In this document: in pieces, positions 261 through 14,826 of the stretch | Layout: every line of letters begins with the position of its first letter | Numbering within the stretch: the first letter of the stretch is position 1 | Origin: an uncultured Alphaproteobacteria bacterium | GTDB taxonomy: Bacteria > Pseudomonadota > Alphaproteobacteria > SHNJ01 | NCBI GenBank assembly: GCA_964647725.1 | Contig: CAZYJI010000005.1 | Span: forward strand, 47,190-111,189 | Direction of reading: 5' to 3' | Length of the DNA stretch: 64,000 bases | The notes under the pieces: generated by a model | Databases searched by the model: none | Told to the model about the DNA's origin: nothing | What the model saw: the letters and a program-made list of their open reading frames with translations, nothing else | Program-made: the position numbers and the translations under genes

Positions 261-1300
261 TGAAACTCGCCTTTGCCCAAATCGATCCATTTATCGCTTC
301 CGTACCGCGTGCCTGCCGCGTGGTTTTATTTTACGGGCCGGACGAGGGCATGAACCGCATGCGCGCGCAGAGTATTATCAAACAGAAATTGGGCGCGAAG
401 CCAGATCCATTCGCCCTGATCGAATTGCAAGCATCCGAATTATCCGACGACCCAACAAGATTGCTGGATGAAATTCAAACCATGCCATTTGGCGGCGATG
501 CAAAAGTAATTTATATCCGCCAAGCCACGGACGGTTTGGCAACCGCCATCAGCCAAGCGATCGAATCATGCCCGGAATTTTCGACATTGCTGATCGAAGC
601 GGGCGAGTTAAACCCAAAATCCACCTTACGCAATTTGTGCGAGGGCGCGGATGAACGCGCCGCTGCGATTCCGGCCTATGATGATGAGGGGCGCGGTTTA
701 TCGCAATATATTCAAAGTTTCTTGAATGACGCCGGGGCAAAATTGGAATCCGGCGCGATGCAGAATCTGACATCGTTATTATCCGCCAACCGTATGGTCA
801 ATAAACAGGAACTGGAAAAATTATTATTATATATTCACCCCGGAAAAACCATCAGCAACGAGGACATCGAAAATTGCCTGGTGAACCAATCGCAAATGGA
901 ATTGGACGATGTGGTGTATGCCGCATTTTCCGGTCAGGGCAAGCAATTGGATAACGGCATCCACAAATTAAAATCCGAAGGATTATTCGGCATTCCAATC
1001 ATCCGCGCCACCGCGCGGCATGTGATGCGCCTGCATTGGGCAAGATCGATGATTCTGGCCGGCGCGCAAATGGATGACACCATCAAAATGTTGCGCCCGC
1101 CAATATTTTTCAAAAAATTGAAATCGTTCGAAGCGCAATTGCGCCTGTGGAATCCGAACACCTTATTGAAATTACTATCCCGCCTGTCGGAAACCGAAAT
1201 TCAATGCAAATCCACCGGTTACCCGGTCGATGAAATCACCGGCCAATTATTGATGGCGATTTGCGCCCAGGCCCAATCTTTGGCTAAAAAAGCAGCCTAG
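260..1300 (+). CDS. holA: DNA polymerase III delta subunit
   Basis: 346 aa. The N-terminal 'VVLFYGPDEG' clamp-loader delta-like region fits, and the gene sits in the position holA occupies beside parB in alphaproteobacteria. Confidence 0.75.
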   Translation: MKLAFAQIDPFIASVPRACRVVLFYGPDEGMNRMRAQSIIKQKLGAKPDPFALIELQASELSDDPTRLLDEIQTMPFGGDAKVIYIRQATDGLATAISQAIESCPEFSTLLIEAGELNPKSTLRNLCEGADERAAAIPAYDDEGRGLSQYIQSFLNDAGAKLESGAMQNLTSLLSANRMVNKQELEKLLLYIHPGKTISNEDIENCLVNQSQMELDDVVYAAFSGQGKQLDNGIHKLKSEGLFGIPIIRATARHVMRLHWARSMILAGAQMDDTIKMLRPPIFFKKLKSFEAQLRLWNPNTLLKLLSRLSETEIQCKSTGYPVDEITGQLLMAICAQAQSLAKKAA

Positions 1301-1373
1301 AACAAATACTTATTCCCATTTGACTTTTATAGTCTTTAAGGATACTTTCCTCTATAAATTTTAATTATAAACA

Positions 1374-2477
1374 ATGCTTTTACAGGAGCCGGTCATGATA
1401 TTTACACCCGATTTAACTTTTGGCTCGCGCCAGGATGCTTTTGAACCCGCGCCGGTTTTTTACAACGCGCGCGTAACCGGAACCAGCGTCGATAATATCG
1501 CGGGAATTAGTTTTGCCGAAGACGGCACCATTGTCATTTTACAAAAACGAACCATAGAGACACCGCAACAGCACGGGCGGCCTTTTTTAAAAGATATTGT
1601 TGCCCCAACCAAATTGACCGTATCGCCACAAGTTCTAAAAGATCATTTGCGCAACATGCGCGGTTGGGTGGAAGATTTATATACCGACGCCATCGCCCGC
1701 GCCTATAGAATTGGCACAGTTGCCGATACCATGTATGTCGGAAACACCGCCAGGAATTTTTGGCCGGAACGCGTGGATCTGGTGCGCATTCGGCAAAGCG
1801 AGGCCGATCGCGGCGGCATGGGAAGAATATTGACCGGCGCATTGGTGCGCGAACAGCCAGCAGTGCACGGAGAAATAAAAGGATCTCACCGCCCCTTCGA
1901 TCCGATCAGTGTGCTTGGCATCGGTCTTACTCCAATTGTCAACGATCTGTGCCGGCGCGGCGCGCGCGTTTTAAAAGAATCTTTTCCAGGGGTAAGAAGT
2001 ATGGGCCTTGGCCGGCATGGCCAATTTGTACAAAACACCCCGGGCGAGCAATTTAAACCGGCGCAATTGCGAATCGGCACATCGTCTTTTGCCCAGCAAT
2101 TTTGCAGCGTTGGTGGCGCTGGTGGACCGATGACCGTGATTGCCTTTTGCAGCGATACGCGATTGAACCTGCCTTCCGCCGAAATGGCGCGTGAATTCGC
2201 GGTCAGCCAACAATTATCGCCGGATAGATGTGTTGGTATCGCGGCGGATGCAAGTTTGTTCCCGGGCCTTACCCATTGCACCACCGTGCACGTGCGCGCC
2301 GGTATGGAAGAGGCGGTGAAAATGGCCCATAACGCCGGAATGTTGGCGGGAACTGATTTCGGTTATGCGGGTTTGCAAATTAGCCGATACCGGTTAGACC
2401 GGTTTAAACCGGCTGCGGCAAAAAAACCGGCACCTGGAATCGCAAGCGCGTTAAATACTGGCCGGGCAAGCAAATAA
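1374..2477 (+). CDS. hypothetical protein (367 aa), Ala/Arg/Gly-rich, no recognisable motif
   Basis: Longest ORF in the region, on the same strand as holA. The start may be the downstream Met at about 1389. Shorter ORFs in other frames overlap it. Confidence 0.4.
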   Translation: MLLQEPVMIFTPDLTFGSRQDAFEPAPVFYNARVTGTSVDNIAGISFAEDGTIVILQKRTIETPQQHGRPFLKDIVAPTKLTVSPQVLKDHLRNMRGWVEDLYTDAIARAYRIGTVADTMYVGNTARNFWPERVDLVRIRQSEADRGGMGRILTGALVREQPAVHGEIKGSHRPFDPISVLGIGLTPIVNDLCRRGARVLKESFPGVRSMGLGRHGQFVQNTPGEQFKPAQLRIGTSSFAQQFCSVGGAGGPMTVIAFCSDTRLNLPSAEMAREFAVSQQLSPDRCVGIAADASLFPGLTHCTTVHVRAGMEEAVKMAHNAGMLAGTDFGYAGLQISRYRLDRFKPAAAKKPAPGIASALNTGRASK

Positions 2478-2487
2478 GTTTCGCAGA

Positions 2488-2790
2488 ATGCACATAGAAG
2501 TAGAAACCAATAATGTAATTGGCGCGCTTGGAACGCTGGCCCAGCTTTTAATCGCCCCAGCGCAGTCGGTTATGCTGCACAAAACCTGGGGATCCGCTAG
2601 AATGACCACAGAAGAAGTTGCAGAACTTCAACAAGAAGTGGCAAGACATCGCATTATACTGGCCGAGAAAATCGGAATCCCTGATCAGAAAAGATTATCC
2701 GATGCCGAATTCATGGATGCAGCACGCCGCAAAACCGCAACGCAATGCCATATCCCTCCGGAAGAGTTGGTATTTTTACGCAGCCGATAA
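2488..2790 (+). CDS. small hypothetical protein
   Basis: A 100-aa ORF immediately follows the previous gene. The likely true start is the internal Met (MTTEEVAELQQ...). It ends 4 nt before the convergent parB stop. Confidence 0.3.
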   Translation: MHIEVETNNVIGALGTLAQLLIAPAQSVMLHKTWGSARMTTEEVAELQQEVARHRIILAEKIGIPDQKRLSDAEFMDAARRKTATQCHIPPEELVFLRSR

Positions 2791-2793
2791 TTA

Positions 2794-3723
2794 TTATTTT
2801 TTGCCCAAACGGGTGATCACATCATCCAATTGATCGAGATCCTGGTAATGAATTGTCAATTGACCCGCCTTGCCGGAAAAACGGATATCCACCCGCATGC
2901 CCAGCAATTGCGATAATTGTTTTTCAAGCGCGCGCGTATCGGCATCGGGACCGCTGGTATTGGCGGCCGATTGATTGTTGTTCGATGCGGCGGCAAAGGC
3001 CGGGCGCACCGCGATATTGGCCAAACGGCCCGGTTTTTTGATCAAATGCCCATCGGCCAGTTTTTCGGTTTCGCGAACATTCAAATTTTTGGCGATAATT
3101 TCTTTGGCCAGCGCGGCGGGATCGGTGACCCCGATCAATAATTTGGCGTGGCCCACGGTCAATTGGCCCGAACGCACATAATCGCGCACGGTTTTCGGCA
3201 AATCCAATAAACGCATAATATTGGCCACATGGCTGCGCGATTTTCCGACACCCTTGGCGACGTCTTCCTGGGTTTGATTGAATTCTTGGGTCAGGCGGTG
3301 ATACGCCTCGGCTTCTTCGATCGGATTCAAATCTTGGCGTTGCAAATTTTCGATCAGCGCGATTTGCATTGCGTCGCGATCGGTCAAATCCTTGATCAAT
3401 ACCGGCACATCGTGCAATTGCGCGATTTGCGCGGCGCGCCAGCGCCGTTCGCCGGCGATCAATTCATAGCCGCCATTGTTTTCCGGATCTTTGCGCACCA
3501 CGATTGGTTGCAAAATGCCTTTCGATTTGATCGATTCGGCCAATTGATTCAGCGCGTCTTGATCGAAATCGCGGCGCGGTTGATATTTGCCCGGGCGAAT
3601 TTGCCCGATAGCAATGGTTTTAATACCGCTGCGCAATTTATCCAATTGCGCGTAATCGCCCGTTTCATCGCCGAGCAACGATGCCAAACCCCGTCCCAAA
3701 CCTTTTCTTGCTTCTGCGTTCAT
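2794..3723 (-). CDS. parB: chromosome partitioning protein ParB
   Basis: The N-terminal 'GLGRGLASLLG' motif, the ParB/Sulfiredoxin box 'IAGERRWRAA' and an HTH are present. The gene is adjacent to parA. Confidence 0.92.
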   Translation of the reverse strand: MNAEARKGLGRGLASLLGDETGDYAQLDKLRSGIKTIAIGQIRPGKYQPRRDFDQDALNQLAESIKSKGILQPIVVRKDPENNGGYELIAGERRWRAAQIAQLHDVPVLIKDLTDRDAMQIALIENLQRQDLNPIEEAEAYHRLTQEFNQTQEDVAKGVGKSRSHVANIMRLLDLPKTVRDYVRSGQLTVGHAKLLIGVTDPAALAKEIIAKNLNVRETEKLADGHLIKKPGRLANIAVRPAFAAASNNNQSAANTSGPDADTRALEKQLSQLLGMRVDIRFSGKAGQLTIHYQDLDQLDDVITRLGKK

Positions 3724-3740
3724 TTCAAACTCCGTCTTTA

Positions 3741-4604
3741 TTATGCTGCTTTATATGTTCCGATGCGTTGCGATAACATCGCTTCGCGTTTCAATACTTC
3801 GCTGGCCAAATGCATGTAAGCGACCGATCCCGGGCATTTGTGATCGTATAACAATACCGGTTTGCCGTGGCTTGGCGCCTCGGAAACGCGCACGTTGCGC
3901 GGGATGATGGTTTGATACACTTTTTCGCCGAAAAATGTGCGCACATCAGCTTCGACATTGGCCGATAAATTATTGCGTTTGTCGTACATGGTTAAAACTA
4001 CGCCTTGAATTTCCAAACTTGGATTCAATTTCGCGGTAATGCGTTCCACCGTGCGAATCAATTGCGATAAACCCTCTAACGCAAAGAATTCACATTGCAA
4101 TGGAACCAGCAACGCGTTTGCCGCAACCAAGGCATTTAATGTGATTAATCCCAGCGAAGGCGGGCAATCGATAATAATAAAATCGAATGTCGATGGGGAA
4201 GGCGAGGCCACATCATCATTGGCCGCGCCGGATTCATTGGCGCGCCAGGAAAGACCGCGCGCTTTTTGCATGGCGTCGCGCAATTTGAATTCGCGACCAG
4301 GCAAATCGACCAGTTCAATTTCCGCGCCCGCCAAATCCGGCGTTGCCGGAACAACGCACAAATTTTTAATGCTGGTTTCTTGAATCGCGCCTGCCAAATC
4401 GGCGCGGCCCAATAATACTTCGTACGATCCGACGGCGCGTTGATTTTTATTCAAACCAAGGCCGGTCGACGCGTTGCCCTGGGGATCCAAATCGATCACC
4501 AATACGCGCCGCCCAACCGCGGCCATGCAAGTTGCCAAATTGATGGCAGTGGTGGTTTTGCCAACGCCGCCTTTTTGATTCGCGATACAGATTATACGAG
4601 TCAT
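3741..4604 (-). CDS. parA: chromosome partitioning ATPase ParA/Soj
   Basis: Deviant Walker A 'ANQKGGVGKTTTAINLA' is present and the gene lies upstream of parB. Confidence 0.92.
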   Translation of the reverse strand: MTRIICIANQKGGVGKTTTAINLATCMAAVGRRVLVIDLDPQGNASTGLGLNKNQRAVGSYEVLLGRADLAGAIQETSIKNLCVVPATPDLAGAEIELVDLPGREFKLRDAMQKARGLSWRANESGAANDDVASPSPSTFDFIIIDCPPSLGLITLNALVAANALLVPLQCEFFALEGLSQLIRTVERITAKLNPSLEIQGVVLTMYDKRNNLSANVEADVRTFFGEKVYQTIIPRNVRVSEAPSHGKPVLLYDHKCPGSVAYMHLASEVLKREAMLSQRIGTYKAA

Positions 4605-4618
4605 TCCTTATTCCTTTC

Positions 4619-4670
4619 TACCCTCCCCTTGAGGGAGGGTCAAAGTTGCAACAGCAACTTTGGGGTGGGG
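4619..4670 (-). repeat. REP-like double-hairpin repeat, copy A (minus orientation)
   Basis: The reverse complement reads CCCCACCCCAAA-[gttgctgttgcaac]-TTTGACCCTCCCTCAAGGGGAGGGTA. This matches the elements at 5047-5096 and 31868-31915. Confidence 0.85.
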
Positions 4671-4671
4671 T

Positions 4672-5043
4672 TTATAATATTCCCACCGCTTTTTTAATAT
4701 CTATTAATACACCTTCTATATTTTTCTTCACATCTTCATCAGTAAATCGAATTACCGTAAATCCAAGATCCACTAATAATTTTTCTTTTCTAACGTCGTT
4801 TTCACAGATAATTGAAAAATTATGAGAAACCCCATCCAATTCAATAACCAATTTTTTATCAGCACAATAAAAATCCGCTATATATTTATGAATCGGTTGC
4901 TGTCTACGAAATTTTAATCCTGCTAATTTTTTTCCTCTCAATTCTTCCCATAAAATTATTTCTGCGGGTGTCATGTCGTTTCTTAAATTTCTTCCGCGTT
5001 CTTTCATCCATTCGCTAACTTTTCTTCCGGATAATTTCATCAT
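4672..5043 (-). CDS. DUF559 endonuclease-domain protein (Vsr/restriction-endonuclease-like fold)
   Basis: 123 aa with 'DFYCADKKLVIELDG...H' and 'GFTVIRFTDEDV', typical of DUF559. Inverted copies of the repeat element precisely flank the gene. Confidence 0.75.
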   Translation of the reverse strand: MMKLSGRKVSEWMKERGRNLRNDMTPAEIILWEELRGKKLAGLKFRRQQPIHKYIADFYCADKKLVIELDGVSHNFSIICENDVRKEKLLVDLGFTVIRFTDEDVKKNIEGVLIDIKKAVGIL

Positions 5044-5046
5044 TTA

Positions 5047-5096
5047 CCCCACCCCAAAATCGCAAGCGATTTTGACCCTCCCTCAAGGGGAGGGTA
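5047..5096 (+). repeat. REP-like double-hairpin repeat, copy B
   Basis: CCCCACCCCAAA-[atcgcaagcgat]-TTTGACCCTCCCTCAAGGGGAGGGTA. It is inverted relative to copy A. Confidence 0.85.
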
Positions 5097-5102
5097 TTAA
5101 GG

Positions 5103-6080
5103 TTAATTGATCAACGGTTTTTTGGTTACATCTGGAACTTGATATGGCCGCGTCACGCGGTAAAACGCCTGCTGATTCGGATCGTACTTATCCAATAATG
5201 CGTTCATGAATCCACTGTTAGCCAGATTTTGGCTGGCGGTGTTCAGCATATTGGTTAAACGGAATTCATTGGCGCCAACGCTGATATTCGCTGGAATCAC
5301 CTGAACCGGCATATGGGTGATCGCTTTGAATTTGCCCGGGTTTTGCGCCATGTAATCTTTGGCAACCGCCAGATTCAAAAACGCCACATCGGCGCGGCCG
5401 GATTCTATTTCGGTAAATTGCCGTTCGATTTCATTGCCCGATTTTGGCAGATTGACCATAAAGGCGCTGGAATAATTGCTGCGCAAAATGCTTTGCGATA
5501 AATCGCCATCGATCGTCACAACGCGAATCATCGGATCGTTGATGAACGCCAATGATTGATCGAAACGGCAATCGCCATCGCGCACCACCGCGACAACCGG
5601 GAAATAAAACATTGGCACGGTATATTCGGCCGATTTGCCGATTTCCGCAGTCTGCCAGCCGCCGGTGCATTCCAAATCATATTGTCCGGAATTCATATCG
5701 GTTGGATAGGCGGATGCATTTAATTCTTGGGTCCATTCGACGCGCATATCCAATGAACGCGCGAGTTCATTCATATATTCATACCAAACGCCGGAAACAA
5801 CGCCGGTATTCGGATCGCGCGACAACATCGGCGCCCAGTTGACATAGGCGCAACGCATTATGCGGGTTTGCATCACGCGGTTAAAAGCGACATTCTGCGC
5901 CGTTCCTGGAATCGCCATGCCGCTGCCGTCTTGCATCGCGTAATTTTGCGCGCCCATGCCCGGCGCCATGGCCATGCCGCGCACGCCGTTTAATTTATGG
6001 AACAAGAAATACGCCGCGATAGTCACAACCAGCGCGATTATGAATACCTGCGCATAAAAACTGAATTTGGATTTTGGCAT
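5103..6080 (-). CDS. periplasmic substrate-binding protein, amino-acid ABC transporter type (family 3 SBP), membrane-anchored
   Basis: 325 aa with an N-terminal TM/signal anchor. SBP_bac_3-like motifs are present ('GRADVAF', 'RPYQ'). Confidence 0.65.
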   Translation of the reverse strand: MPKSKFSFYAQVFIIALVVTIAAYFLFHKLNGVRGMAMAPGMGAQNYAMQDGSGMAIPGTAQNVAFNRVMQTRIMRCAYVNWAPMLSRDPNTGVVSGVWYEYMNELARSLDMRVEWTQELNASAYPTDMNSGQYDLECTGGWQTAEIGKSAEYTVPMFYFPVVAVVRDGDCRFDQSLAFINDPMIRVVTIDGDLSQSILRSNYSSAFMVNLPKSGNEIERQFTEIESGRADVAFLNLAVAKDYMAQNPGKFKAITHMPVQVIPANISVGANEFRLTNMLNTASQNLANSGFMNALLDKYDPNQQAFYRVTRPYQVPDVTKKPLIN

Positions 6081-6091
6081 GTCTGCTCTCC

Positions 6092-6535
6092 TTAGTTATT
6101 TTGTATCGTTGAAGCTTGATATGGTTTCGCGGGACGCAAAAATGTTCCGGGAATTTTTTCATGCGCGGCGATGAATTTATTCATCGTGCCGTCATTGGCC
6201 ATTTCTTCGAAAACGGTGTTGATTGCGGATGCCAAACCAGTATCGCCTTTTTTAAACGCGAAACCGTGCGAAAATAAACGCACCGGCGCATTGACGGTGA
6301 TATCGCGCAATCTTCCAGGATTGGCCAACAAATACGGGGCGGCAACGGCGGCGTTATTGATCGCCACATCGGCCTTTCCGGTTTCCACGGCCAACATTAA
6401 TTGGGTGATATCGGTATTTTGCGGCATGGAATAGGTTTTGGCTTTGGGGTAATCGTCGCGTGCGATAAATTGGCTCATCTCCGCATCGACGGTGGCGATG
6501 ATGGAAATCAAAATTGTTTTTGTGGTTTGGGTCAT
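6092..6535 (-). pseudogene. truncated paralog (C-terminal lobe only) of the adjacent substrate-binding protein
   Basis: 147 aa. 'GKADVAINNAAVAAPYLLANPGRLRDIT...KPYQ' aligns with 'GRADVAFLNLAVAKDYMAQNPGKFKAIT...RPYQ' of 5103-6080. There is no N-terminal lobe or signal peptide, and the start overlaps the rsmG stop. Confidence 0.5.
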
Positions 6536-7164
6536 GGAATATTCCGCTTAATATTTTTTATTTGCAGCACGCGCGAATTTTTATCAGTGACCGATTCATG
6601 CGCGGTGCAATCAAATGAAAATTCTTTTTTCGCTTCTTCTATTTCTTGGCTTGAATGCTCGCCTTTTAAAAACAAACACTCGCCGCCGGGCAGCAATTTA
6701 TCCTGACTGATTATCAATAATTTATTCAAAGAAGAAAGAGCCCTTGCGGTTACAATGTTTCCTTTAGATAAATTATCTTCAATGCGTTCCGCATGAACTT
6801 GAACACGGGTATTTGTTTCGCGGGCGACTTCGTTTAGAAATGTGCACTTCCGTTGATCGGACTCGATCAAGTGTACTTCCCGAAATCCCATCATTGCCAA
6901 AACCATACCTGGAAACCCTGCCCCCGAACCTAGGTCTATGAGTATTTTGTCGGGTGCATGGTCAACATACCTATACAACTGGAGCGAATCAAGCAAATGA
7001 CGCTGCCAAAAATCATCCAAAGTGGATTTAGCCACAAGATTTATTTTGGGATTCCATTTTTTGAGTAATTCAAAATAAGTAACAAAGTTACAAATTGTTC
7101 CACGTGGAACAATTTGAATTTTTGTTATCTCATTCATTATTCTTTCTGGAATATTATTTTCCAA
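6532..7164 (-). CDS. rsmG: 16S rRNA (guanine527-N7)-methyltransferase RsmG (GidB)
   Basis: 'LLKKWNPKINLVA', 'RHLLDSL' and a 'DLGSGAGFPG' SAM motif are present. The probable true start is the ATG at 7137. Confidence 0.88.
   Translation of the reverse strand: MENNIPERIMNEITKIQIVPRGTICNFVTYFELLKKWNPKINLVAKSTLDDFWQRHLLDSLQLYRYVDHAPDKILIDLGSGAGFPGMVLAMMGFREVHLIESDQRKCTFLNEVARETNTRVQVHAERIEDNLSKGNIVTARALSSLNKLLIISQDKLLPGGECLFLKGEHSSQEIEEAKKEFSFDCTAHESVTDKNSRVLQIKNIKRNIP
7091..7116. repeat. 26-bp perfect palindrome CAAATTGTTCCACGTGGAACAATTTG, copy 1, inside the 5' end of rsmG coding
   Basis: Read directly from the sequence. It is identical to the core at 9179-9202. Confidence 0.9.
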
Positions 7165-7184
7165 AATTCATCTCTGTTTTTGAT

Positions 7185-9137
7185 TTAGGCCACTTCACTT
7201 GTCGTTTGCGATTTTTGGCGCTGCTGTTTTTTCAAATAACGAAGCAAATTGACGATCGATGCTGGCGTAATACCGGAAATTTTGCTGGCCGCCGCGATAT
7301 TTACCGGCCGCACCTTGGAAAGTTTGGCAATCAGTTCCGCCGACAATCCACCAACCGCCGAATAATCCAGGTCCACCGGCAGTTTTAGATTCTCATCCCG
7401 CTGTGTCGAGCGAATATCTGCCTCTTGCCGGTCAATATAGCCGCTATATAAAGCCTCAATCGCGATTTGTTCGCGGATTGGCGAGGCGATTTGTGATAAT
7501 TCTGGCCAAATTTCTTGCAGCTTCTCAAAACCGATCTCTTTATACCGCAGCAAATCAAAGGCACTGCGGCGAATACCGTCACGGTTGATTTGAACACCAA
7601 AATTTTCCAATTGATTGGGCGTAATTTGTAGGCCCTGCATTTTGGCCTTACCACTATTCAAATCATTGATTTTATTATTGAAAGTATCCTGGCGGATGGT
7701 GCTGACGCAGCCAATTTTTATGCCGCTTGGAGTCAATCTTTGATCGGCATTGTCAGCCCGCAAAGACAGGCGATATTCCGCCCGGCTAGTGAACATCCGA
7801 TATGGCTCCGTCACCCCGCGCGTGGTGAGATCGTCGATCATCACGCCGATATAAGATCCGGTGCGGGATAAAATAAATTCTTCCGACGCAGCAGCAGCTA
7901 GCCCGGCATTGATCCCGGCGATAATTCCTTGCGCCCCCGCCTCTTCATAGCCGGTGGTGCCGTTGATTTGCCCAGCCAAAAATAATCCCGGCACTTTTTT
8001 GGTTTGCAGAGTCGGATAAAGTTCGCGCGGATCGATGTAATCATATTCAATGGCATAGCCATAACGTTTGACCAAAACATTACCTAATCCTTTGATGCTA
8101 CGCAAAAATTTGTCCTGCACATCGACCGGTAAAGAGGTTGAAATGCCATTTGGATAAATCGTATCATCATCCAGCCCTTCCGGTTCCAGGAAAATCTGGT
8201 GATGAGATTTATCGGCAAAACGCACAATTTTATCTTCGATCGATGGGCAATAACGGGGACCAGTCGTTTCAATCTGCCCAGAATACATTGGTGAGCGATG
8301 CAAATTATCGCGGATCACCTGGTGGGTTTCCGCCGTAGTATGGGTGATATGGCAAGGGATCTGCGGTGTGGTGATTTCGGTATTTAAAAATGAAAATGGT
8401 GTTGGTGGATTATCGCCCGGCTGCTGTTCGGTGACAGACCAATCGATGGATTTGCCATCGAGTCGCGCCGGCGTTCCGGTTTTCAGCCTTCCGATCGTAA
8501 AACCTAGGTTTTGCAAGGTTTCGCCGAGCCTGATCGCGGGCTTTTCCCCTATTCTGCCAGCCGGAGTTTTGGTTTCGCCTTGATGAATCAAACCGCGTAA
8601 AAATGTGCCGGTGGTAATGACCAAGGCGCCGCAAGAAATCACGGCACCGGAATCAATTTCAATTCCCGATACGCGGCCAGAAGAATCCAGAATAATATCT
8701 TCCACTTGCGCTGGAATAATGGTCAGGTTCGGATAGTTCAGTAGAATATTCTGCATCGCCTGGCGATATAGTTTGCGGTCAGCTTGCGCGCGCGGACCCC
8801 AAACGGCCGGGCCTTTGGATTTATTCAGCATTCGGAATTGAATTCCGGCGGCATCGGCGCATAAGCCCATCACCCCGTCCAACGCATCGATTTCCCGAAC
8901 CAAATGTCCTTTGCCCAAACCGCCGAACGCCGGATTGCAAGACATCTCCCCCAGCGTTTCGATTTTATGGGTCACCAAAGCCGCTTTAGCCCCAAGCCGC
9001 GACGATGCCGTCGCGGCCTCTGCACCAGCATGTCCGCCACCCACAACGATGACATCGAATTTTTGGGGATATCCTGAATTTTGCATGTCTTTTCTTATAG
9101 TTAGATCGATTTTAAAGTCAATAGTCTTTCCCAGCAT
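7185..9137 (-). CDS. mnmG: tRNA uridine-5-carboxymethylaminomethyl(34) synthesis enzyme MnmG (GidA)
   Basis: '[16 protein letters not shown]' FAD motif is present and the length is about 630 aa. The probable real start is Met18 at about 9086. Confidence 0.95.
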
Positions 9138-9178
9138 CTTCCTAAGATATTGATTTTAAATAAAAGTAATTTTATTCC

Positions 9179-9202
9179 AAATTGTTCCACGTGGAACAAT
9201 TT
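9179..9202. repeat. 24-bp perfect palindrome AAATTGTTCCACGTGGAACAATTT, copy 2, in the AT-rich mnmG upstream/divergent intergenic region
   Basis: Read directly from the sequence. It lies roughly 40-90 bp upstream of the mnmG start and about 105 bp upstream of the divergent 9308 gene. Confidence 0.9.
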
Positions 9203-9307
9203 ATAATATAATTCCTAATTAATTATATTTATTATACTAATATTATTATTTATCTAATAAAGATACAATTATTGCCTTATCGGTAATTTTGTAATATATT
9301 ACGCGGC

Positions 9308-10384
9308 ATGAATTCCAATGATCAAAACGTTTTTCCACGCGCCGCGTTCGGCGGGTTTGGCCATGAAACTTCAGCCGCGTACATGGATGAACATGAAGCG
9401 CATTTGAATGCCAGTATTGCGATGCGCGTCAAGACGGGTGAAAAAATTCGCGTGCTCGATCTTGCGTGCGGCATGGGCAAAACATCTTTGCGTCTGGCAA
9501 AAAGCGGCGCGGTGGTAACGGCCATAGATCTTAATCCCGAAACTCCCGCACACATTCAATCCGGACTGCAAACCGAAAATCTGCCGCAAGACCGCGTGCG
9601 CGTTATTACAAAAGACATGCGGCAATTGCCGGAAAAAATTCCGGGCGGCCCATTCGATTATATTTTATTCCAGCGCGCGCTGGATTGCCTGCCATACGAA
9701 GATGGCAAAAAAGTCATGCGGAAATTATCGGCGAATCTTAAATCCGGCGGCGGAATTTATTTGACCGTCAGCAGCCCGTCCGCCGATTACGCCAAAGATT
9801 ATGCCGGACAAAACAAACCCATCAAAACACGCTTTGATCGGCTTGCACCGGAATTTCAAATGGCACACCATTTTACCCAGCCCATTTGCATGTACCATCC
9901 GCCCGAATTGCGAAAACTTGCGGCAAAAAGTGGATTGCGATGCGAGCAACTATATTTATCCGCCGCCGGCAGCAATAAATTGATCGCAACAACACAGCCG
10001 CAAATATCCGCGCGCTGGATCGGCATCGCGGCCGCAGCAATCGTGGCATTTGCGGCATCGATACCGGTTTGGAATAATTTGCACCAAAGTTCCGATACCA
10101 TAGAAACCGTGGCAACACCGCAATCCAATCCCACCAAGATTTTTTCGCATATATTCAAGGTGGAGAACGGCAAGGAGATATTGGTTTTCACCACCGCGCC
10201 GGACACCGACCGCGATATGATTCAAGATTGGTTTACCAGCGATTTGGGCAAGGCTTGCCGCGGCAGCCGGTTATCCGGATATCAAAAAACCGAACAAACC
10301 GTGATGCAAAATGGCCGTCCCGTTCCATATGTCGAATATTTCCGCCAAGCCGAGGCCTGGTCCAACAGCCGTCAGCGGGGATAA
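9308..10384 (+). CDS. class I SAM-dependent methyltransferase fused to a TM helix and a C-terminal extracytoplasmic domain
   Basis: SAM motif I 'VLDLACGMGKTSL' and a post-I acidic 'AIDLNPE' are present. A TM helix 'WIGIAAAAIVAFAASIPVW' sits at about residue 230. Confidence 0.55.
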   Translation: MNSNDQNVFPRAAFGGFGHETSAAYMDEHEAHLNASIAMRVKTGEKIRVLDLACGMGKTSLRLAKSGAVVTAIDLNPETPAHIQSGLQTENLPQDRVRVITKDMRQLPEKIPGGPFDYILFQRALDCLPYEDGKKVMRKLSANLKSGGGIYLTVSSPSADYAKDYAGQNKPIKTRFDRLAPEFQMAHHFTQPICMYHPPELRKLAAKSGLRCEQLYLSAAGSNKLIATTQPQISARWIGIAAAAIVAFAASIPVWNNLHQSSDTIETVATPQSNPTKIFSHIFKVENGKEILVFTTAPDTDRDMIQDWFTSDLGKACRGSRLSGYQKTEQTVMQNGRPVPYVEYFRQAEAWSNSRQRG

Positions 10385-10691
10385 ATATCGCAAATACCGG
10401 TTGCGGGTAACCGCGCGGAAAAGTAATATTTGCCAGTTCGATTTTAATATGGATGGAAATCCCATGCCCAAACCCGCAAACAATCATCCTTGGCGCAAAA
10501 GCTCATTGAATACGCCAGTCAAATCCATACCGATGCCGCAGGGTATTGGCCTATCGCCGGATAGGCTCGCCGAATTAAGCGCGGAAATAAGGGACGCGGG
10601 CGCGCAAGCCCGGCAGCGATCCGCCAAAGCAGCAGCCAGATTTGGGTTGCAAGCACCTGATCGGGGAAGCAAATAAAACACGAGGAATAAT

Positions 10692-12386
10692 TTAAATCGC
10701 GGTAACTTTACCGCGCGCGGCTATTATCCGGTTACGTAATCCCGGCGGTAAAACATGATCGCTGGTTCCGTTGCTGCTTGACCCCGGCGCACCTTGCGCG
10801 TCGAGCAGCATGCGCAACCTGTCCGTGTCAATACATCTTGATAAAAATTGCGTGTCGCGTCCGCCCAGCGCCTCAAATTGCTCCGCAATAAATCTGTATA
10901 AGCGCTCGATTTTTCCGCTGCGCCTAACTTCATCGAGCGCCAATATCGAGCCCATATCTTCATCAAATACGGCCGCATAAAGACCAATAGCGGCGGATGA
11001 AAGACCCTTAAGGCTAAAAGGATTTTCCGGCGCTTCCGCGCTGTTTTGTTTTGATATCCTCAAATTTCCATTCACTCCATCCGGGGTTCTATGAGCGACC
11101 ATATCCGGACGAGCGATAGCCAAAGCCGCCCAACCACCAATTTCCAGCCCATATAATCCGGCATAGGCGGCAAAAAAACTGGAAATCCGGGGCATGTTCG
11201 CGGGATCGGCCTTGAATTCAAGATAAGACCGCCAAAGATGGCCGTGCAAAACCGACAAATCGTAATTTTTTTGCGGCGGCGAATCTAAGGCCCGCGCAGC
11301 AGTGCATTGTATCGTGCGCGCCTTGAATATAGGAATTTCCATTTGCTCGGCTATCTGCTGCGTATCGAATCCCATCCAATTCATTTGGCAAATTTTCAAA
11401 TCTTCAGCGCATAACCCGGCTTTCGCAAATCTCAGTACACAATAACTGGCAAAGGCCGGGGTCAAGAAACCATCGTTAATTTTATTCAAAACTTCATTAT
11501 CAAATGCGGCCAGCATTGCTTCCCGCCCATGCCCGTCCCCAAATAATTTTTGCGATATGCGGCGGAAAGTGCATTGAATCATTCCAATCTTCTGCCCGGG
11601 AAATAAGCATGTCGCAAAAGTGGTGTTGAATCCGTTCAAGTACCCCCACCACCCGATCATGACATCTGGTTCGATATGATGAATCTTGGCTATAGCGGCG
11701 ACGGCTTTTTGATAATCGGGGTCCTTTTTTCCAAAAGCTTCTTTAATTTTAGGATGCAATCTTGGTTTTGCCGGCTGAAAGGCGCGCGCAAGATCTGGGC
11801 CAAGCAAAATATATTCATAAAGGCGCGCCCGCACCATGGCTTGCGCCTCAAAGATAAAATTACGTTGATCCTTGCTGGTGGGGGGCAGCCCCAGCGCGGG
11901 AAACAGCGCATACAAATAATCCGTCAAAGATTTTTCAGAACACCCGATTTCTCCGGCCATTTGTTTTTGTGTGGCGGCCCCGGTATGGCATAAATGAATT
12001 GCTATCTCGCGCATTTTTCCGGTAATACCCAACACATCGAACACCGGGTTCAAAGTTTCCGCGGCAAAAACGACTGTTGGATGATGCGGCTGTGCGGCTA
12101 TGGCGTTCAAAAAAACCGGGCGGCGGGAACGGATCCCGTTGGTCGAAACAATTCCAAGTTGCGCCGCCATAATATCTACGCGGCCATGTATTTCTGCATG
12201 GGTCGATTCAACCAATCTTGCAATGGCGCGATGGGTTTTGCCCCGCAACAAATGGTATAAAATACTGATATCGAAAGCATCCCATTCCTTGGCCAAGGCT
12301 AAATTCGCAATAAACGGCCAAGATATTTTCGGCTCCGAATTATTTTTCAATCGCCGATTCGTCATGGGTTCATCCACTACCGACAT
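10692..12386 (-). CDS. hypothetical 564-aa protein with three LuxR/GerE-type HTH-like repeats
   Basis: Three segments fit the LuxR HTH pattern. They are 'LLRGKTHRAIARLVESTHAEIHGRVDIMAAQLGI', 'LCHTGAATQKQMAGEIGCSEKSLTDYLYALFPALGL' and 'MGFDTQQIAEQMEIPIFKARTIQCTAARAL'. The ORF overlaps the upstream ORF by 10 nt. Confidence 0.5.
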   Translation of the reverse strand: MSVVDEPMTNRRLKNNSEPKISWPFIANLALAKEWDAFDISILYHLLRGKTHRAIARLVESTHAEIHGRVDIMAAQLGIVSTNGIRSRRPVFLNAIAAQPHHPTVVFAAETLNPVFDVLGITGKMREIAIHLCHTGAATQKQMAGEIGCSEKSLTDYLYALFPALGLPPTSKDQRNFIFEAQAMVRARLYEYILLGPDLARAFQPAKPRLHPKIKEAFGKKDPDYQKAVAAIAKIHHIEPDVMIGWWGYLNGFNTTFATCLFPGQKIGMIQCTFRRISQKLFGDGHGREAMLAAFDNEVLNKINDGFLTPAFASYCVLRFAKAGLCAEDLKICQMNWMGFDTQQIAEQMEIPIFKARTIQCTAARALDSPPQKNYDLSVLHGHLWRSYLEFKADPANMPRISSFFAAYAGLYGLEIGGWAALAIARPDMVAHRTPDGVNGNLRISKQNSAEAPENPFSLKGLSSAAIGLYAAVFDEDMGSILALDEVRRSGKIERLYRFIAEQFEALGGRDTQFLSRCIDTDRLRMLLDAQGAPGSSSNGTSDHVLPPGLRNRIIAARGKVTAI

Positions 12387-13306
12387 GCGCTAAGTTGTTT
12401 AGCGCGCAACGTCCCGATCAATGGTCTCATATCCAAAGTTCGCTTACCGTTGCCCAGCAAGGATTGGTGCGTGGCCAGTTTTCGGGCCTCTTCGATTGAT
12501 AAAAATCCGCCGCTTAACAACAGGTTCACCGTGTTTTCCAATCGCAACGGTTGATTAGCCAGGACAGGCGCAGAAAATTCCAGGGCGGTGGCGTCCTTCC
12601 ATGCGTGCATCGTCCCGCCACCGTTATTTGCCGGAAACATAAGAACAAATTTCATGGTTTTGGCGCTGTCTTTGAAAAAAATCCAATGTTCCGGATTTTG
12701 GCCATCATTGGCAATCCATAAAGACAGTTGTTCAAAATCGAACAATACACCCTCTTTTCCGGCGTGGCGGCATCCCCGGTGACTGGCGCTGCCAAAAAAT
12801 GGGTTCTTTTCATTATAGGCGATTTGCCACAAAGGGTGATCGACCGATTTTAAATCTTCAACCAGCGGCGCCAATACTGGAACCGCCGCAAGCAGCGCCT
12901 TAAAAACAGTATCGAACGACTGCCCGGGAACATCGATAACCCGGTGCGATGTGTTTTTTCCATCCTGCCTTTTGCTCCAAACGATTTCGCGTTTGACGGT
13001 CTTTAAATCGCTATGATCCAATAAGTAGCCGGCGAATTCATTAGCCTGATCCCCGTCCATCCCATCGATCAGCAAATGGAATTGGGTATCCAAGACCACA
13101 TCAACGTTGATTCTTTGTTTTATCGTTCCTTGTTCTTCATCTTGCGCGCTCAATCCGATTCCCAAATGAGCCATGGTTCCACCGGCCACGAATCTCAGCA
13201 CAGCAAAAACCTTGCTGTCCTTATTGCGATGCCGGAATGTGAATTTTAAATTCATTACCCTACCTATAATTTTTGATATATTTTTTATGGCTACAAAATA
13301 GAGCAT
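12377..13306 (-). CDS. hypothetical protein (about 290-309 aa), first gene of a two-gene operon with the 564-aa protein
   Basis: Long ORF with no recognisable catalytic motif. The start is probably at Met18 (about 13255). It overlaps the downstream gene by 10 nt. Confidence 0.45.
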   Translation of the reverse strand: MLYFVAIKNISKIIGRVMNLKFTFRHRNKDSKVFAVLRFVAGGTMAHLGIGLSAQDEEQGTIKQRINVDVVLDTQFHLLIDGMDGDQANEFAGYLLDHSDLKTVKREIVWSKRQDGKNTSHRVIDVPGQSFDTVFKALLAAVPVLAPLVEDLKSVDHPLWQIAYNEKNPFFGSASHRGCRHAGKEGVLFDFEQLSLWIANDGQNPEHWIFFKDSAKTMKFVLMFPANNGGGTMHAWKDATALEFSAPVLANQPLRLENTVNLLLSGGFLSIEEARKLATHQSLLGNGKRTLDMRPLIGTLRAKQLSACR

Positions 13307-13455: not shown

Positions 13456-14826
13456 TCACTTCCCGATGCAAAAATCGCGGAATACGATGTCCAAAATATC
13501 TTCGACATCGACCGCGCCAGTGATCCGGGCGATCGAATGGGTGGCGGTACGCAAATCTTCGGCTTGCAACTCCGGCGTATCTGCAACTACAAAACGAGTT
13601 ACAGCTTCCAAAGCCTGTTCCACCGCTTGCCGGTGGCGTATTCGTGTGATTTGCGGCGCATCGCCCAGACCCATATACCGCTCCGCCTGTGCGGCCAGTA
13701 GTACCGATATGGGATCAAGGTTATACCCGTCTTTGATCGAAATCCCGATAATATCCAACGCTTTGGGATAGGATTTTCGATACGCCTCTGCATCAAACGG
13801 CGATCGCAACAGATCGGTTTTATTGACCACCACCATATAATTATCGCCGGCGCCCAAATCCGAAACCTTAGAATCGTTATTTTTCAATGGCTCATCGGCA
13901 TCCAGCAAGATCATTTTAAAATCGGAACGGTCCGCCGCCATCAAACTGCGACGAATGCCTTCTTGTTCGATATCGTTGCTGGTTTCCCGAATACCGGCCG
14001 TGTCGACCAATGTCACCGGGTATCCGCGAATATCCAAATGTACTTCGATCGTATCGCGGGTAGTACCGGCCGTCTGACTGACAATCGCCACCTCGCGCCG
14101 CGCCAACATATTCAAAAGACTGGATTTACCCGCATTCGGCGGACCCAGTATGGCGACGGTCATACCTTCCCGTAACCGTTCGCCGCGCCCATTATCGGCC
14201 AGGTGATCTTTCATTTCTTGTTTCACTTGCAAAATATTTTGCTGTAATTCCGCGAAAATGCCGGGCGGAATTTCTTCGTCGGGAAAATCCAAATAGGCTT
14301 CCAAATGCGCCAGGTTATAAATTAACCGTTCGCGCCAATTGCGGTACAAATCGCCCAGCGCTCCGGACATTTGCCGTAACGCTTGGCGGCGCTGCGCTTC
14401 GGTATCGGCATCGATCAAATCGGCCAATCCTTCGATTTCGGTTAAATCCAGTTTGTTATTGTCAAACGCCCTTCGGGTAAATTCACCGGCCTGGGCAGGG
14501 CGGAAATCAGGCAGGCGGGCCAAGGCCGCCAATACCGCATGCACCACCGCCCGGCCGCCATGGGTGTGAAATTCCACCACATCTTCGCCGGTAAAGGAAT
14601 TGGGCGCAGGAAAATACAATATCAATGCCCGGTCAATAACCGCATGACCGTCTTGGTCGTATAATTCAACGAGCGATGCCAGGCGCGGCGCGGGGATTTT
14701 GCGCGCCATCCGTTCCAACGCTAAATACGCGCCAGACCCAGAAATGCGGATCACCGCCACACCGGACCGGCCGGGCGGGGTGGAAAGCGCAAAGATTGTA
14801 TCCTTTATATATATATCGTCTTGCAT
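13456..14826 (-). CDS. mnmE: tRNA modification GTPase MnmE (TrmE)
   Basis: G-domain 'GPPNAGKSSLLN', 'DTAGIRE' and the C-terminal 'CIGK' motif are present. Confidence 0.93.
   Translation of the reverse strand: MQDDIYIKDTIFALSTPPGRSGVAVIRISGSGAYLALERMARKIPAPRLASLVELYDQDGHAVIDRALILYFPAPNSFTGEDVVEFHTHGGRAVVHAVLAALARLPDFRPAQAGEFTRRAFDNNKLDLTEIEGLADLIDADTEAQRRQALRQMSGALGDLYRNWRERLIYNLAHLEAYLDFPDEEIPPGIFAELQQNILQVKQEMKDHLADNGRGERLREGMTVAILGPPNAGKSSLLNMLARREVAIVSQTAGTTRDTIEVHLDIRGYPVTLVDTAGIRETSNDIEQEGIRRSLMAADRSDFKMILLDADEPLKNNDSKVSDLGAGDNYMVVVNKTDLLRSPFDAEAYRKSYPKALDIIGISIKDGYNLDPISVLLAAQAERYMGLGDAPQITRIRHRQAVEQALEAVTRFVVADTPELQAEDLRTATHSIARITGAVDVEDILDIVFRDFCIGK

Follow-up and report, generated by a model that had tools for sequence, protein, structure and literature searches.

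The two copies of a perfect palindrome that bracket mnmG in the window analysed here, a 64-kb stretch of DNA from an uncultured alphaproteobacterium, are very probably the parS sites of the chromosome, centromere-like sequences at which ParB of the ParABS segregation system is loaded. The assignment is based on the sequence identity of the palindromes to parS, the presence of cognate parA and parB genes, the conserved positions of the sites in relatives and the concerted evolution of the copies. The pair is an already known, ordinary and well-understood element and represents neither a replication-origin nor a regulatory novelty. The preliminary description had placed the palindrome within the biology of the origin region, and in this it was right, as parS rather than as a DnaA-box element.

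The 24-mer AAATTGTTCCACGTGGAACAATTT was found in exactly two exact copies, at positions 7092-7115 (predicted parS site 1, core TGTTCCACGTGGAACA at 7096-7111) and 9179-9202 (predicted parS site 2, core at 9183-9198), neither being assigned a strand, and no further matches with up to three mismatches were present in the 64 kb. Copy 1 extends to a 26-bp perfect palindrome (7091-7116, CAAAT...ATTTG) and lies inside a 48-bp quasi-palindrome (7080-7127) with palindromic symmetry at 21 of its 24 positions. The two copies, spaced 2,087 bp apart, are identical across 25 bp (7091-7115 and 9178-9202), and their likeness stops at the palindrome edges. Copy 1 is situated 69 bp beyond the mnmG stop and spans codons 8-16 of rsmG (Q-I-V-P-R-G-T-I-C), while copy 2 lies within an AT-rich divergent intergenic region of 221 bp (23% GC), upstream of both flanking start codons, at 92 bp from the ATG of mnmG and 105 bp from that of a methyltransferase gene. 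The 24-mer was absent from all 100 dinucleotide-preserving shuffles. The exact-match search of the window confirmed the earlier statement that the palindrome occurs exactly twice, once extended to 26 bp; the gene coordinates agreed with the context described for it (mnmG bracketed, one copy in early rsmG and the other in the divergent gap), and the shuffles upheld its non-random nature. The search for half-sites proposed at the same time was run within the window and returned TGTTCCAC five times: the palindromes account for four occurrences, and the fifth is at 13616. No enrichment in the window was seen for the half-sites GTTCCAC and GTTTCAC.

The comparison with known parS sequences showed that the 16-bp core TGTTCCACGTGGAACA is identical at all 16 positions to the parS published for Pseudomonas putida and agrees with the P. 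aeruginosa parS consensus (PMC7022226, Table 1). Both copies are 16-bp inverted repeats that fit the general consensus TGTTNCACGTGAAACA compiled in the same review, the single departure being G12, relative to the B. subtilis-type consensus. The only other core match in the window (14219-14234, two mismatches) falls within mnmE and is at chance level.

Both protein components of a ParABS system are encoded nearby. The parB gene (2794-3723, minus strand; Pfam ParB_N, HTH_ParB and ParB_C) codes for the predicted CTP-dependent clamp protein of both sites, and beside it parA (3741-4604, minus strand; Pfam AAA_31, CbiA, MipZ and ParA) codes for the partner ATPase, of the deviant Walker A type, with an N-terminal KGGVGKT Walker A motif in its translation. 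The pair is found a short distance downstream of rsmG (gidB; 6532-7137, minus strand; Pfam GidB, 1.3e-46), which gives the classic order mnmG-rsmG-parA-parB. The mnmG gene (gidA; 7185-9086, minus strand; Pfam GIDA, 5e-171) is the one bracketed by the two sites, and the SAM-methyltransferase gene (9308-10384, plus strand) is divergent from it. The distance from the ParB-encoding gene to the palindrome is 3.4 kb. The window ParB matched the Caulobacter ParB 6T1F with E = 6.8e-63, the DNA-binding domain being ungapped, and at the contact positions it carries the residues given in PMC7383237 (Q162, G170, K171, S172, R173, N178 and G201); according to the same paper, R173 and G201 specify parS over the Noc site. 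Together with these two residues, the protein carries the motif GERRWRAA, of the GERRxR CTP-binding type. Residue 204 is K, where R is usually conserved; the same K204 is present in ParB proteins of Pelagibacterales whose parS sites are normal.

The positional conservation of the sites was analysed in 80 other alphaproteobacterial loci, which were retrieved via MnmG alone and in which parS was called at no more than one mismatch; among GTDB representatives, the nearest MnmG was 64% identical to that of the window. A parS site was found between -60 and +400 bp relative to the mnmG stop, i.e., at the rsmG 5' end, in 62 of the 76 testable loci, which answers positively the question raised earlier as to whether orthologous rsmG 5' ends carry it. 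A site within 500 bp upstream of mnmG was present in 40 of 77 loci, and 34 loci had parS at both positions. Closer relatives, 11 in number and with MnmG identities of 69-98%, have parS at the same two positions: the rsmG 5' site occurs in every one whose contig includes that end, and the other is located 60-113 bp upstream of mnmG in L323, L327, L328, L329 and L330. Within each of these 11 genomes, all copies share one core variant (C5/G12, T5/A12 or C3/G14); such concerted change points to a shared trans-acting factor, that is, to one protein reading all sites. Of 120 unrelated metagenome contigs retrieved, approximately 37 also have the exact 24-mer next to parA, parB, rsmG or mnmG, and seven of the 120 contain arrays of three to four copies.

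Translated in the longest open frame, the core gives V-S/P-R-E-T at 67 of the 74 sites downstream of mnmG, and most of these peptides align with residue 10 of the window's RsmG. The N-terminal V10-P-R-G-T14 of that protein is, on this comparison, dictated by the putative parS site 1. The odd V-S/P-R-E/G-T motif of RsmG N-termini would be explained in this way, with a DNA-level site and not the function of the protein imposing it, and copy 1 would lie within coding DNA because parS predates and dominates the RsmG N-terminal sequence.

Of the other explanations, the one favoured earlier, that the half-sites represent DnaA boxes in degenerate form and that the region upstream of mnmG is or belongs to oriC, has almost no probability left. 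The half-site TGTTCCACG does match TGATCCACA at 7 of 9 positions, the region is highly AT-rich (23% GC) and DnaA boxes lie upstream of gidA in some bacteria, as at oriCII of P. aeruginosa (PMC13438810), but two mismatches to TGATCCACA and three to TTATCCACA separate the half-site from a box, and the full 16-mer is a perfect parS match. No 9-mer within one mismatch of either box was detected in 9087-9307 or 7090-7190, so the claim was not upheld at either copy; the only matches with two mismatches near the palindromes were the parS half-sites themselves, and neither palindrome showed a DnaA-box cluster with an AT-rich unwinding element. In the whole window, TTATCCACA and TGATCCACA were counted 9 and 5 times against approximately 12.6 and 10.9 expected, and the interval 24.6-25.2 kb, in the conserved rho / DUF299-maf-coaE-dnaQ neighbourhood, is a better candidate for oriC. 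It is also very unlikely that the palindrome serves mainly as an operator coordinating mnmG and rsmG with the methyltransferase gene divergent from them, whether the repressor were another dimeric regulator or ParB acting chiefly in that role. Weak promoter-like hexamers lie on either side of copy 2, those on the minus strand abutting it (-35 TTGGAA at 9180-9175, -10 TAAAAT at 9158-9153) and a plus-strand candidate being at 9200-9229, and modest transcriptional effects are reported for some chromosomal ParB proteins, as in V. cholerae (PMC4010829) and P. aeruginosa (PMC3909081). However, the promoter matches reach merely 9 of 12 positions in DNA of 23% GC, copy 1 is inside a coding region and away from any promoter, additional copies deep in the mnmG of relatives would be senseless for an operator, and no other regulator gene is linked, while the site matches parS and the cognate ParB is present. 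The idea of an unidentified dimeric regulator coordinating mnmG and rsmG was correct only as regards a site for a dimeric DNA-binding protein; the protein can be named as the predicted ParB (2794-3723), and the site is better described as a parS centromere than as an operator.

The structured-RNA and recombination alternatives put forward at the same time were not supported either, as Rfam gave no credible match and the copies change in concert within genomes. That the palindromes work as hairpins at the RNA or DNA level, whether to attenuate or terminate transcription between mnmG and rsmG, to stabilise the mRNA or to gate translation at the start of rsmG, is extremely improbable, even though a 131-nt sense RNA over the mnmG-rsmG junction folds at -31.9 kcal/mol (z = -5.3), the palindrome forms the core of a long predicted hairpin reaching the rsmG start codon within the quasi-palindromic DNA of 7080-7127, and a terminator scan flagged 7091-7116 on both strands (11 pairs, 4 GC). 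The folding z-score follows from parS itself, because any perfect palindrome folds well, and flank complementarity did not exceed that of shifted-register controls at 132 alphaproteobacterial and 119 viral-contig sites. The terminator-like hairpin falls within the rsmG coding sequence, equals the conserved parS and is followed by a poor U-tract (TAACTTTGTT); the Rfam scan of 6400-9700 (E up to 1) returned only a spurious miRNA model whose 23 bits fall short of its gathering score of 99, and concerted core variants are not expected of independent hairpins without frequent copying between them. A dispersed repeat, a mobile-element terminus or a site-specific recombination site bracketing mnmG could account for two identical 25-bp copies 2.1 kb apart and for the short in-frame insertions that carry the motif with its flanks elsewhere in relatives, but it is scarcely credible: no transposase or recombinase genes are linked, a perfect palindrome has no orientation, the similarity of the copies ends exactly at the palindrome edge, and positional conservation across the class is unlike that of mobile-element ends.

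With the palindromes read as parS, the origin is likely a separate feature, the AT-rich gap at 24589-25165 (no strand assigned) between rho (minus strand) and DUF299-maf-coaE (plus strand). This candidate, proposed from synteny, GC content and weak signals, has a GC of 0.34 and six DnaA-like 9-mers at up to two mismatches against 1.9 expected, which is a weak enrichment; the slope of the GC skew changes there, the skew signal being weak, and the 11-mer TTAATCCCCGC is common to this gap and the equivalent gap in L327. The distance to the predicted parS sites ranges from 15.4 kb (site 2) to 17.5 kb, and a candidate some 15 kb away would agree with origin-proximal parS placement, parS of Caulobacter being approximately 8 kb from ori (PMC5815017).

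In the window's clade the flanks of the sites are conserved too, giving a consensus of approximately 30 bp, T.CAAAw-TGTTyCACGTGrAACA-wTTTG.A. Palindromic CAAAT...ATTTG flanks are, judging from the relatives compared, a feature of the putative parS of this clade; together with the 48-bp quasi-palindrome at copy 1 they exceed the needs of the 16-bp ParB contact model. This conservation may reflect extended recognition by ParB or merely copying between sites. Additional parS copies occur deep within mnmG in relatives, where the motif and its flanks were copied to new places as short in-frame insertions, and it seems that the site spreads in the form of a short 'cassette', in-frame insertion into mnmG included. 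There are also signs of co-evolution between core and ParB: one subclade combines TGCTTCACGTGAAGCA with a GHAK/R-to-GQAR change in ParB. For the L325/L326 subclade, the possible co-evolution concerns TGCTTCAC versus TGTTyCAC cores and H versus Q at ParB residue 202. We tentatively consider, as a possibility that is rather doubtful, that the clade possesses a centromere of approximately 26-30 bp, with flanks read by ParB or a partner protein on top of the classical core, spread of the cassette and co-evolution of core and ParB.

Flank palindromy was rejected as a general rule of parS, since the excess over permutation seen for 132 alphaproteobacterial sites was gone against shifted-register controls; no excess was found in 119 parS sites from viral contigs. 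A small tail of long perfect palindromes persisted after these controls. A comparable AAT-core-ATT extension was noticed in unrelated phyla. Likewise, ParB residues that would track long flanks were rejected: Acidobacteria-like 'long parS' loci have GKD/ER and the window's clade the ordinary GKSR, and no ParB signature shared by these two groups was found. If the flanks are recognised, the textbook 16-bp parS understates what some ParB proteins read, which would matter to genome-wide parS prediction and to the design of orthogonal ParB/parS labelling tools, as a refinement of a known system and not as a new one.

We infer from the known mechanism of ParB proteins how the system would operate here. 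The helix-turn-helix domains of a ParB dimer would bind each 16-bp core, with one monomer on each half-site, and this binding would lead to CTP-dependent closure of the ParB clamp and its sliding to adjacent DNA. With clamps sliding from parS, two sites 2,087 bp apart would nucleate a single partition complex over mnmG-rsmG-parAB, and ParA-ATP would move this complex and the nearby origin to each daughter cell. For annotation, the sites would mark the chromosome centromere of an uncultured alphaproteobacterium, with the candidate oriC approximately 15 kb off.

Compared with known elements, the DnaA box (TTATCCACA; in Caulobacter the G-box TGATCCACA) resembles the half-site in its CCAC core and in being associated with the region of the origin; the half-site differs from this 9-mer by two to three mismatches and forms a perfect dyad, not an array, with no boxes nearby. 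Also related is the Noc-binding site (NBS, ATTTCCCGGGAAAT type), a palindrome of 16 bp recognised by a helix-turn-helix dimer of the ParB fold; structures of Noc, a ParB paralogue, match the window ParB at approximately 1e-45. However, NBS departs from parS at positions 1 and 6, and Noc has Q173, K179, K184 and R201, whereas the window ParB has the parS-type R173 and G201.

Spo0J of Bacillus subtilis shares the consensus TGTTNCACGTGAAACA and the protein family, its structure 6SDK (PDB) matching the window ParB at 1.4e-50. The consensus half-site is GTGAAACA in B. subtilis and GTGGAACA in the window, and this Firmicute has its parS sites spread over tens of kb. One of them falls within the coding part of spo0J, which sets a precedent for parS inside genes.

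Caulobacter crescentus also has an alphaproteobacterial ParABS, and the DNA-contact residues of its ParB (6T1F) are the same as in the window. Its parS sites are clustered within a few kb near parAB, at the ori distance given above, and fall within essential or high-fitness-cost genes (PMC5815017), so that the intragenic copy 1 has a documented precedent. The Caulobacter consensus has T5/A12 (conserved half GTGAAA), unlike C5/G12 of the window, and there are seven sites (1-7) of graded affinity versus two perfect ones; the flanks conserved to approximately 30 bp across the window's clade are a further difference.

Pseudomonas (here P. putida and P. aeruginosa), a gammaproteobacterium unlike the window's host, has four key sites approximately 10-20 kb from parAB near oriC that do not flank gidA (PMC13438810), whereas those of the window flank mnmG, and conserved CAAAT/ATTTG flanks, present in the window's clade, are not described for Pseudomonas parS in the literature examined. 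Its parAB, like that of the window, is part of a gidA-gidB-parA-parB cluster, and the ParB-bound parS of P. putida and P. aeruginosa (TGTTCCACGTGGAACA) is a perfect palindrome with C5 and G12, identical to the window core over all 16 positions.

Two exact copies of the 24-bp palindrome AAATTGTTCCACGTGGAACAATTT were found in the window, at 7092-7115 (copy 1) and 9179-9202 (copy 2). No third copy was present in the 64 kb with up to three mismatches, and dinucleotide-preserving shuffles of the window gave no match. The perfect palindrome of copy 1 reaches 26 bp (7091-7116); copies 1 and 2 share an identical stretch of 25 bp, and their likeness ends where the palindrome ends. ORF and Pfam analysis placed copy 1 in rsmG (6532-7137, minus strand), under codons 8-16 (Q-I-V-P-R-G-T-I-C), and copy 2 in the 221 bp (23% GC) that separate mnmG (7185-9086, minus strand) from a SAM-methyltransferase gene (9308-10384, plus strand). 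The two copies, their coordinates and the mnmG-bracketing setting had been reported accurately in the preliminary description.

The 16-bp core, TGTTCCACGTGGAACA, is a chromosomal parS sequence according to its match to published sites, and parA (3741-4604) and parB (2794-3723) are located downstream of rsmG. The ParB of the window aligned with Caulobacter crescentus ParB (PDB 6T1F) with E = 6.8e-63 and without gaps in the DNA-binding domain. The parS-contacting residues were mapped by Jalal et al., and R173 and G201 separate parS binders from Noc (PMC7383237). In the numbering of the literature (6T1F chain numbering + 10), Q162, G170, K171, S172, R173, N178 and G201 are all identical to the known contacts. 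Residues I179 and D184 occupy tolerant positions, K replaces R at position 204, as in Pelagibacterales ParBs, and the GERRWRAA motif is present. Judged by sequence, the palindromes are a textbook parS pair in the ancestral alphaproteobacterial position, an already known kind of element. The dimeric DNA-binding protein offered earlier as an alternative was right in spirit; the core match, the parA and parB genes and the contact residues identify the protein as ParB at parS.

The classic mnmE-mnmG-rsmG-parA-parB cluster is broken at two places (4672-6535 and 9308-13306). The rsmG/parA interval holds two SBP_bac_3 (solute-binding-protein) genes, an insertion common to four closer relatives (L321, L323, L324 and L326), and a DUF559 gene. 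The mnmG/mnmE interval holds the SAM-methyltransferase gene, a 121-aa ORF (10311-10676) and two large ORFs (564 and 309 aa) without a Pfam or NCBIfam match. A weak parS-like sequence within mnmE (14219-14234, TGTTTCACTTGCAAAA, two mismatches) and a lone TGTTCCAC half-site at 13616 are both at chance level.

The class-wide comparison was based on 80 species-representative loci fetched by MnmG alone (56-64% identical to that of the window), labelled as alphaproteobacterial throughout save one titled 'Candidatus Actinomarina', and scanned for parS with at most one mismatch. A site was present from -60 to +400 bp of the mnmG stop at 62 of 76 testable loci and within 500 bp upstream of mnmG at 40 of 77, with both positions filled at 34 loci; thus, the bracketing of mnmG is ancient and class-wide. 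At 67 of 74 downstream sites, translation of the core in the longest open frame gives V-S-R-E-T (or V-P-R-E-T if position 5 is C), and most of these readings align to residue 10 of the window RsmG. Therefore, the DNA-level site fixes five RsmG residues class-wide, and this N-terminal motif is a by-product of it. The downstream sites of the class fall about 30-150 bp past the mnmG stop; their window equivalent, at 7096-7111, reads V-P-R-G-T. The rsmG 5' ends of relatives, to which the preliminary description had drawn attention, carry the site in most class loci and in all covered closer relatives.

The protein search returned MnmG homologues at 98% and 69-77% identity; 12 contigs were examined, and 11 genomes gave 23 parS sites. 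The site at the 5' end of rsmG was filled in every covered genome, 46-74 bp past the mnmG stop (+230 in L324), and the upstream one, 60-113 bp before mnmG, in about half of the genomes. Across these 23 sites the flanks were conserved in coding and noncoding copies alike, with T at position -7 (87%), C at -5 (75%), A at -4 to -2 (87-90%) and T (60%) or A (33%) at -1, a consensus of approximately T.CAAAw-core-wTTTG.A; a relative with 65% MnmG identity (L332) was without conserved flanks. Core variation in the 11 genomes was always symmetric, and all copies within one genome were alike: C5/G12 in the window, L321, L323 and L324, T5/A12 in L327-L331, and C3/G14 (TGCTTCACGTGAAGCA) in every copy of L325 and L326 (e.g., L325:11961 and L326:3818). 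Such concerted change across separate copies is a prediction of a shared trans-acting reader. The ParB of L325 and L326 (parB at 13667-14635 and 6380-7351, respectively) reads GQAR, as opposed to GHAK or GHAR elsewhere, adjoining the G201 contact, and together with the core variant this may reflect co-evolution of ParB and parS. L323 (GCA_964458615.1) has at 1080-5987 a block of about 2.5 kb twice in tandem, with a dienelactone-hydrolase gene and two unknown genes, which may be a true duplication or may stem from the assembly.

The class sample showed a weak preference for A at -1 and -2 (about 0.3 bit), and AAT...ATT on both sides of the core was found at 0 of 111 sites in an unselected sample of viral contigs containing the 16-mer; the flanks of the window thus depart from the default. 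The exact 24-mer occurred in more than 120 metagenome contigs (a lower bound) of unrelated taxa with 25-66% GC, e.g., at L131:7962-8843, L158:7863-8225, L169:5803-7104, L177:4055-4395, L103:2767-2939 and L157:734-1236. Among the matches listed, MnmG (43-47%) and ParB (34-55%) are distant from those of the window, and seven contigs carry 3-4 exact copies within about 1.3 kb; some arrays adjoin parAB or rsmG. Relatives of parA, parB, rsmG or mnmG lie in the retrieved stretch of about 37 of the at least 120 matches listed. Other parS on these contigs, which were not selected by flank, have A at -2 (85%) and -3 (71%) and T or A at -1; thus, an extended 'long parS' recurs in several lineages, including that of the window, which suggests such a consensus in several phyla. 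An extra parS with its flanks was also found within mnmG, as an 8-codon in-frame insertion (L325:10426, L326:2280 and L327:10441) or a 4-codon version (L329:4444), and the inserted peptide of L325 and L326, QIASREAICN, is that of the rsmG copy. The motif has therefore been physically copied between places, as a short cassette entering a loop of a conserved enzyme. Extended recognition is a tentative and somewhat doubtful explanation of the conserved flanks, and, alternatively, the flanks could be kept by gene conversion with the coding-constrained rsmG copy as donor.

A transcriptional operator would agree with the weak promoter-like hexamers adjoining copy 2, but copy 1 and the intragenic copies of the relatives lie away from promoters. 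The RNA of the mnmG-rsmG junction forms a strong fold (-31.9 kcal/mol, z = -5.3), and the stretch 7080-7127 has palindromic pairing at 21 of 24 positions, as expected of an RNA or DNA hairpin; however, any perfect palindrome gives such folding. The structured-RNA option proposed earlier found neither an Rfam match nor a general enrichment of flank complementarity. Likewise, a mobile or recombination element, also among the earlier proposals, is at odds with the absence of a linked recombinase and with positions that are kept across the class. The 48-bp quasi-palindrome at 7080-7127 encloses copy 1 between outer arms TAACAAA/TTTGTTA, and the sense-RNA fold of this region, which extends as far as the start codon of rsmG at 7137, may incidentally affect translation of that gene.

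The interpretation as a DnaA box or oriC, favoured by the similarity noted in the preliminary description, is refuted: the half-site is 2-3 mismatches off a DnaA box, boxes with at most one mismatch are absent from both palindrome regions and at or below chance window-wide, and a better origin candidate lies elsewhere in the window, at 24589-25165. This candidate oriC is a 577-bp gap of 34% GC between rho (23314-24588, minus strand), directly before it, and DUF299. Beyond it follow DUF299, maf, coaE (+), an unnamed gene (-), dnaQ (+), secB (-) and a Tim44-family gene (+). This gene order corresponds to the conserved alphaproteobacterial Cori neighbourhood reported by Brassinga et al. (2001). 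Six DnaA-like 9-mers with at most two mismatches lie in the gap versus 1.9 expected, and the cumulative GC skew declines at a steady rate as far as about 24 kb and then levels off. The 11-mer TTAATCCCCGC is common to this gap and the equivalent gap of L327 (273-858). Its TCCCC motif resembles the weak 'W-box' DnaA sites of Caulobacter. With oriC at this location, the parS sites would lie 15-17 kb from it.

For the parS pair, the sequence identity, cognate genes, positional conservation and concerted evolution are direct observations, and we infer ParB binding, spreading and segregation at the window sites from the established mechanism of the family, as described in PMC7053999, PMC8367383 and PMC5815017. 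Each core would be a nucleation point for ParB dimers, and binding would promote CTP-dependent closure of the clamp and its sliding. With a spacing of 2.1 kb, the two sites would then form a single partition complex across mnmG-rsmG-parAB, which ParA would segregate together with the nearby origin.

The features worth following are limited to the extended consensus of the clade and the cassette-like spread of the site. In Caulobacter, parS sites lie inside essential or high-cost genes, clustered about 8 kb from ori (Tran et al., PMC5815017). The general parS consensus is TGTTNCACGTGAAACA, and the sites listed for Pseudomonas aeruginosa and Myxococcus xanthus are TGTTCCACGtGGAACa and TGTTCCACGTGGAACG, respectively (PMC7022226, a review of chromosomal ParB systems). 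The site listed there for Pseudomonas putida is, verbatim, the same 16-mer as the core of the window.
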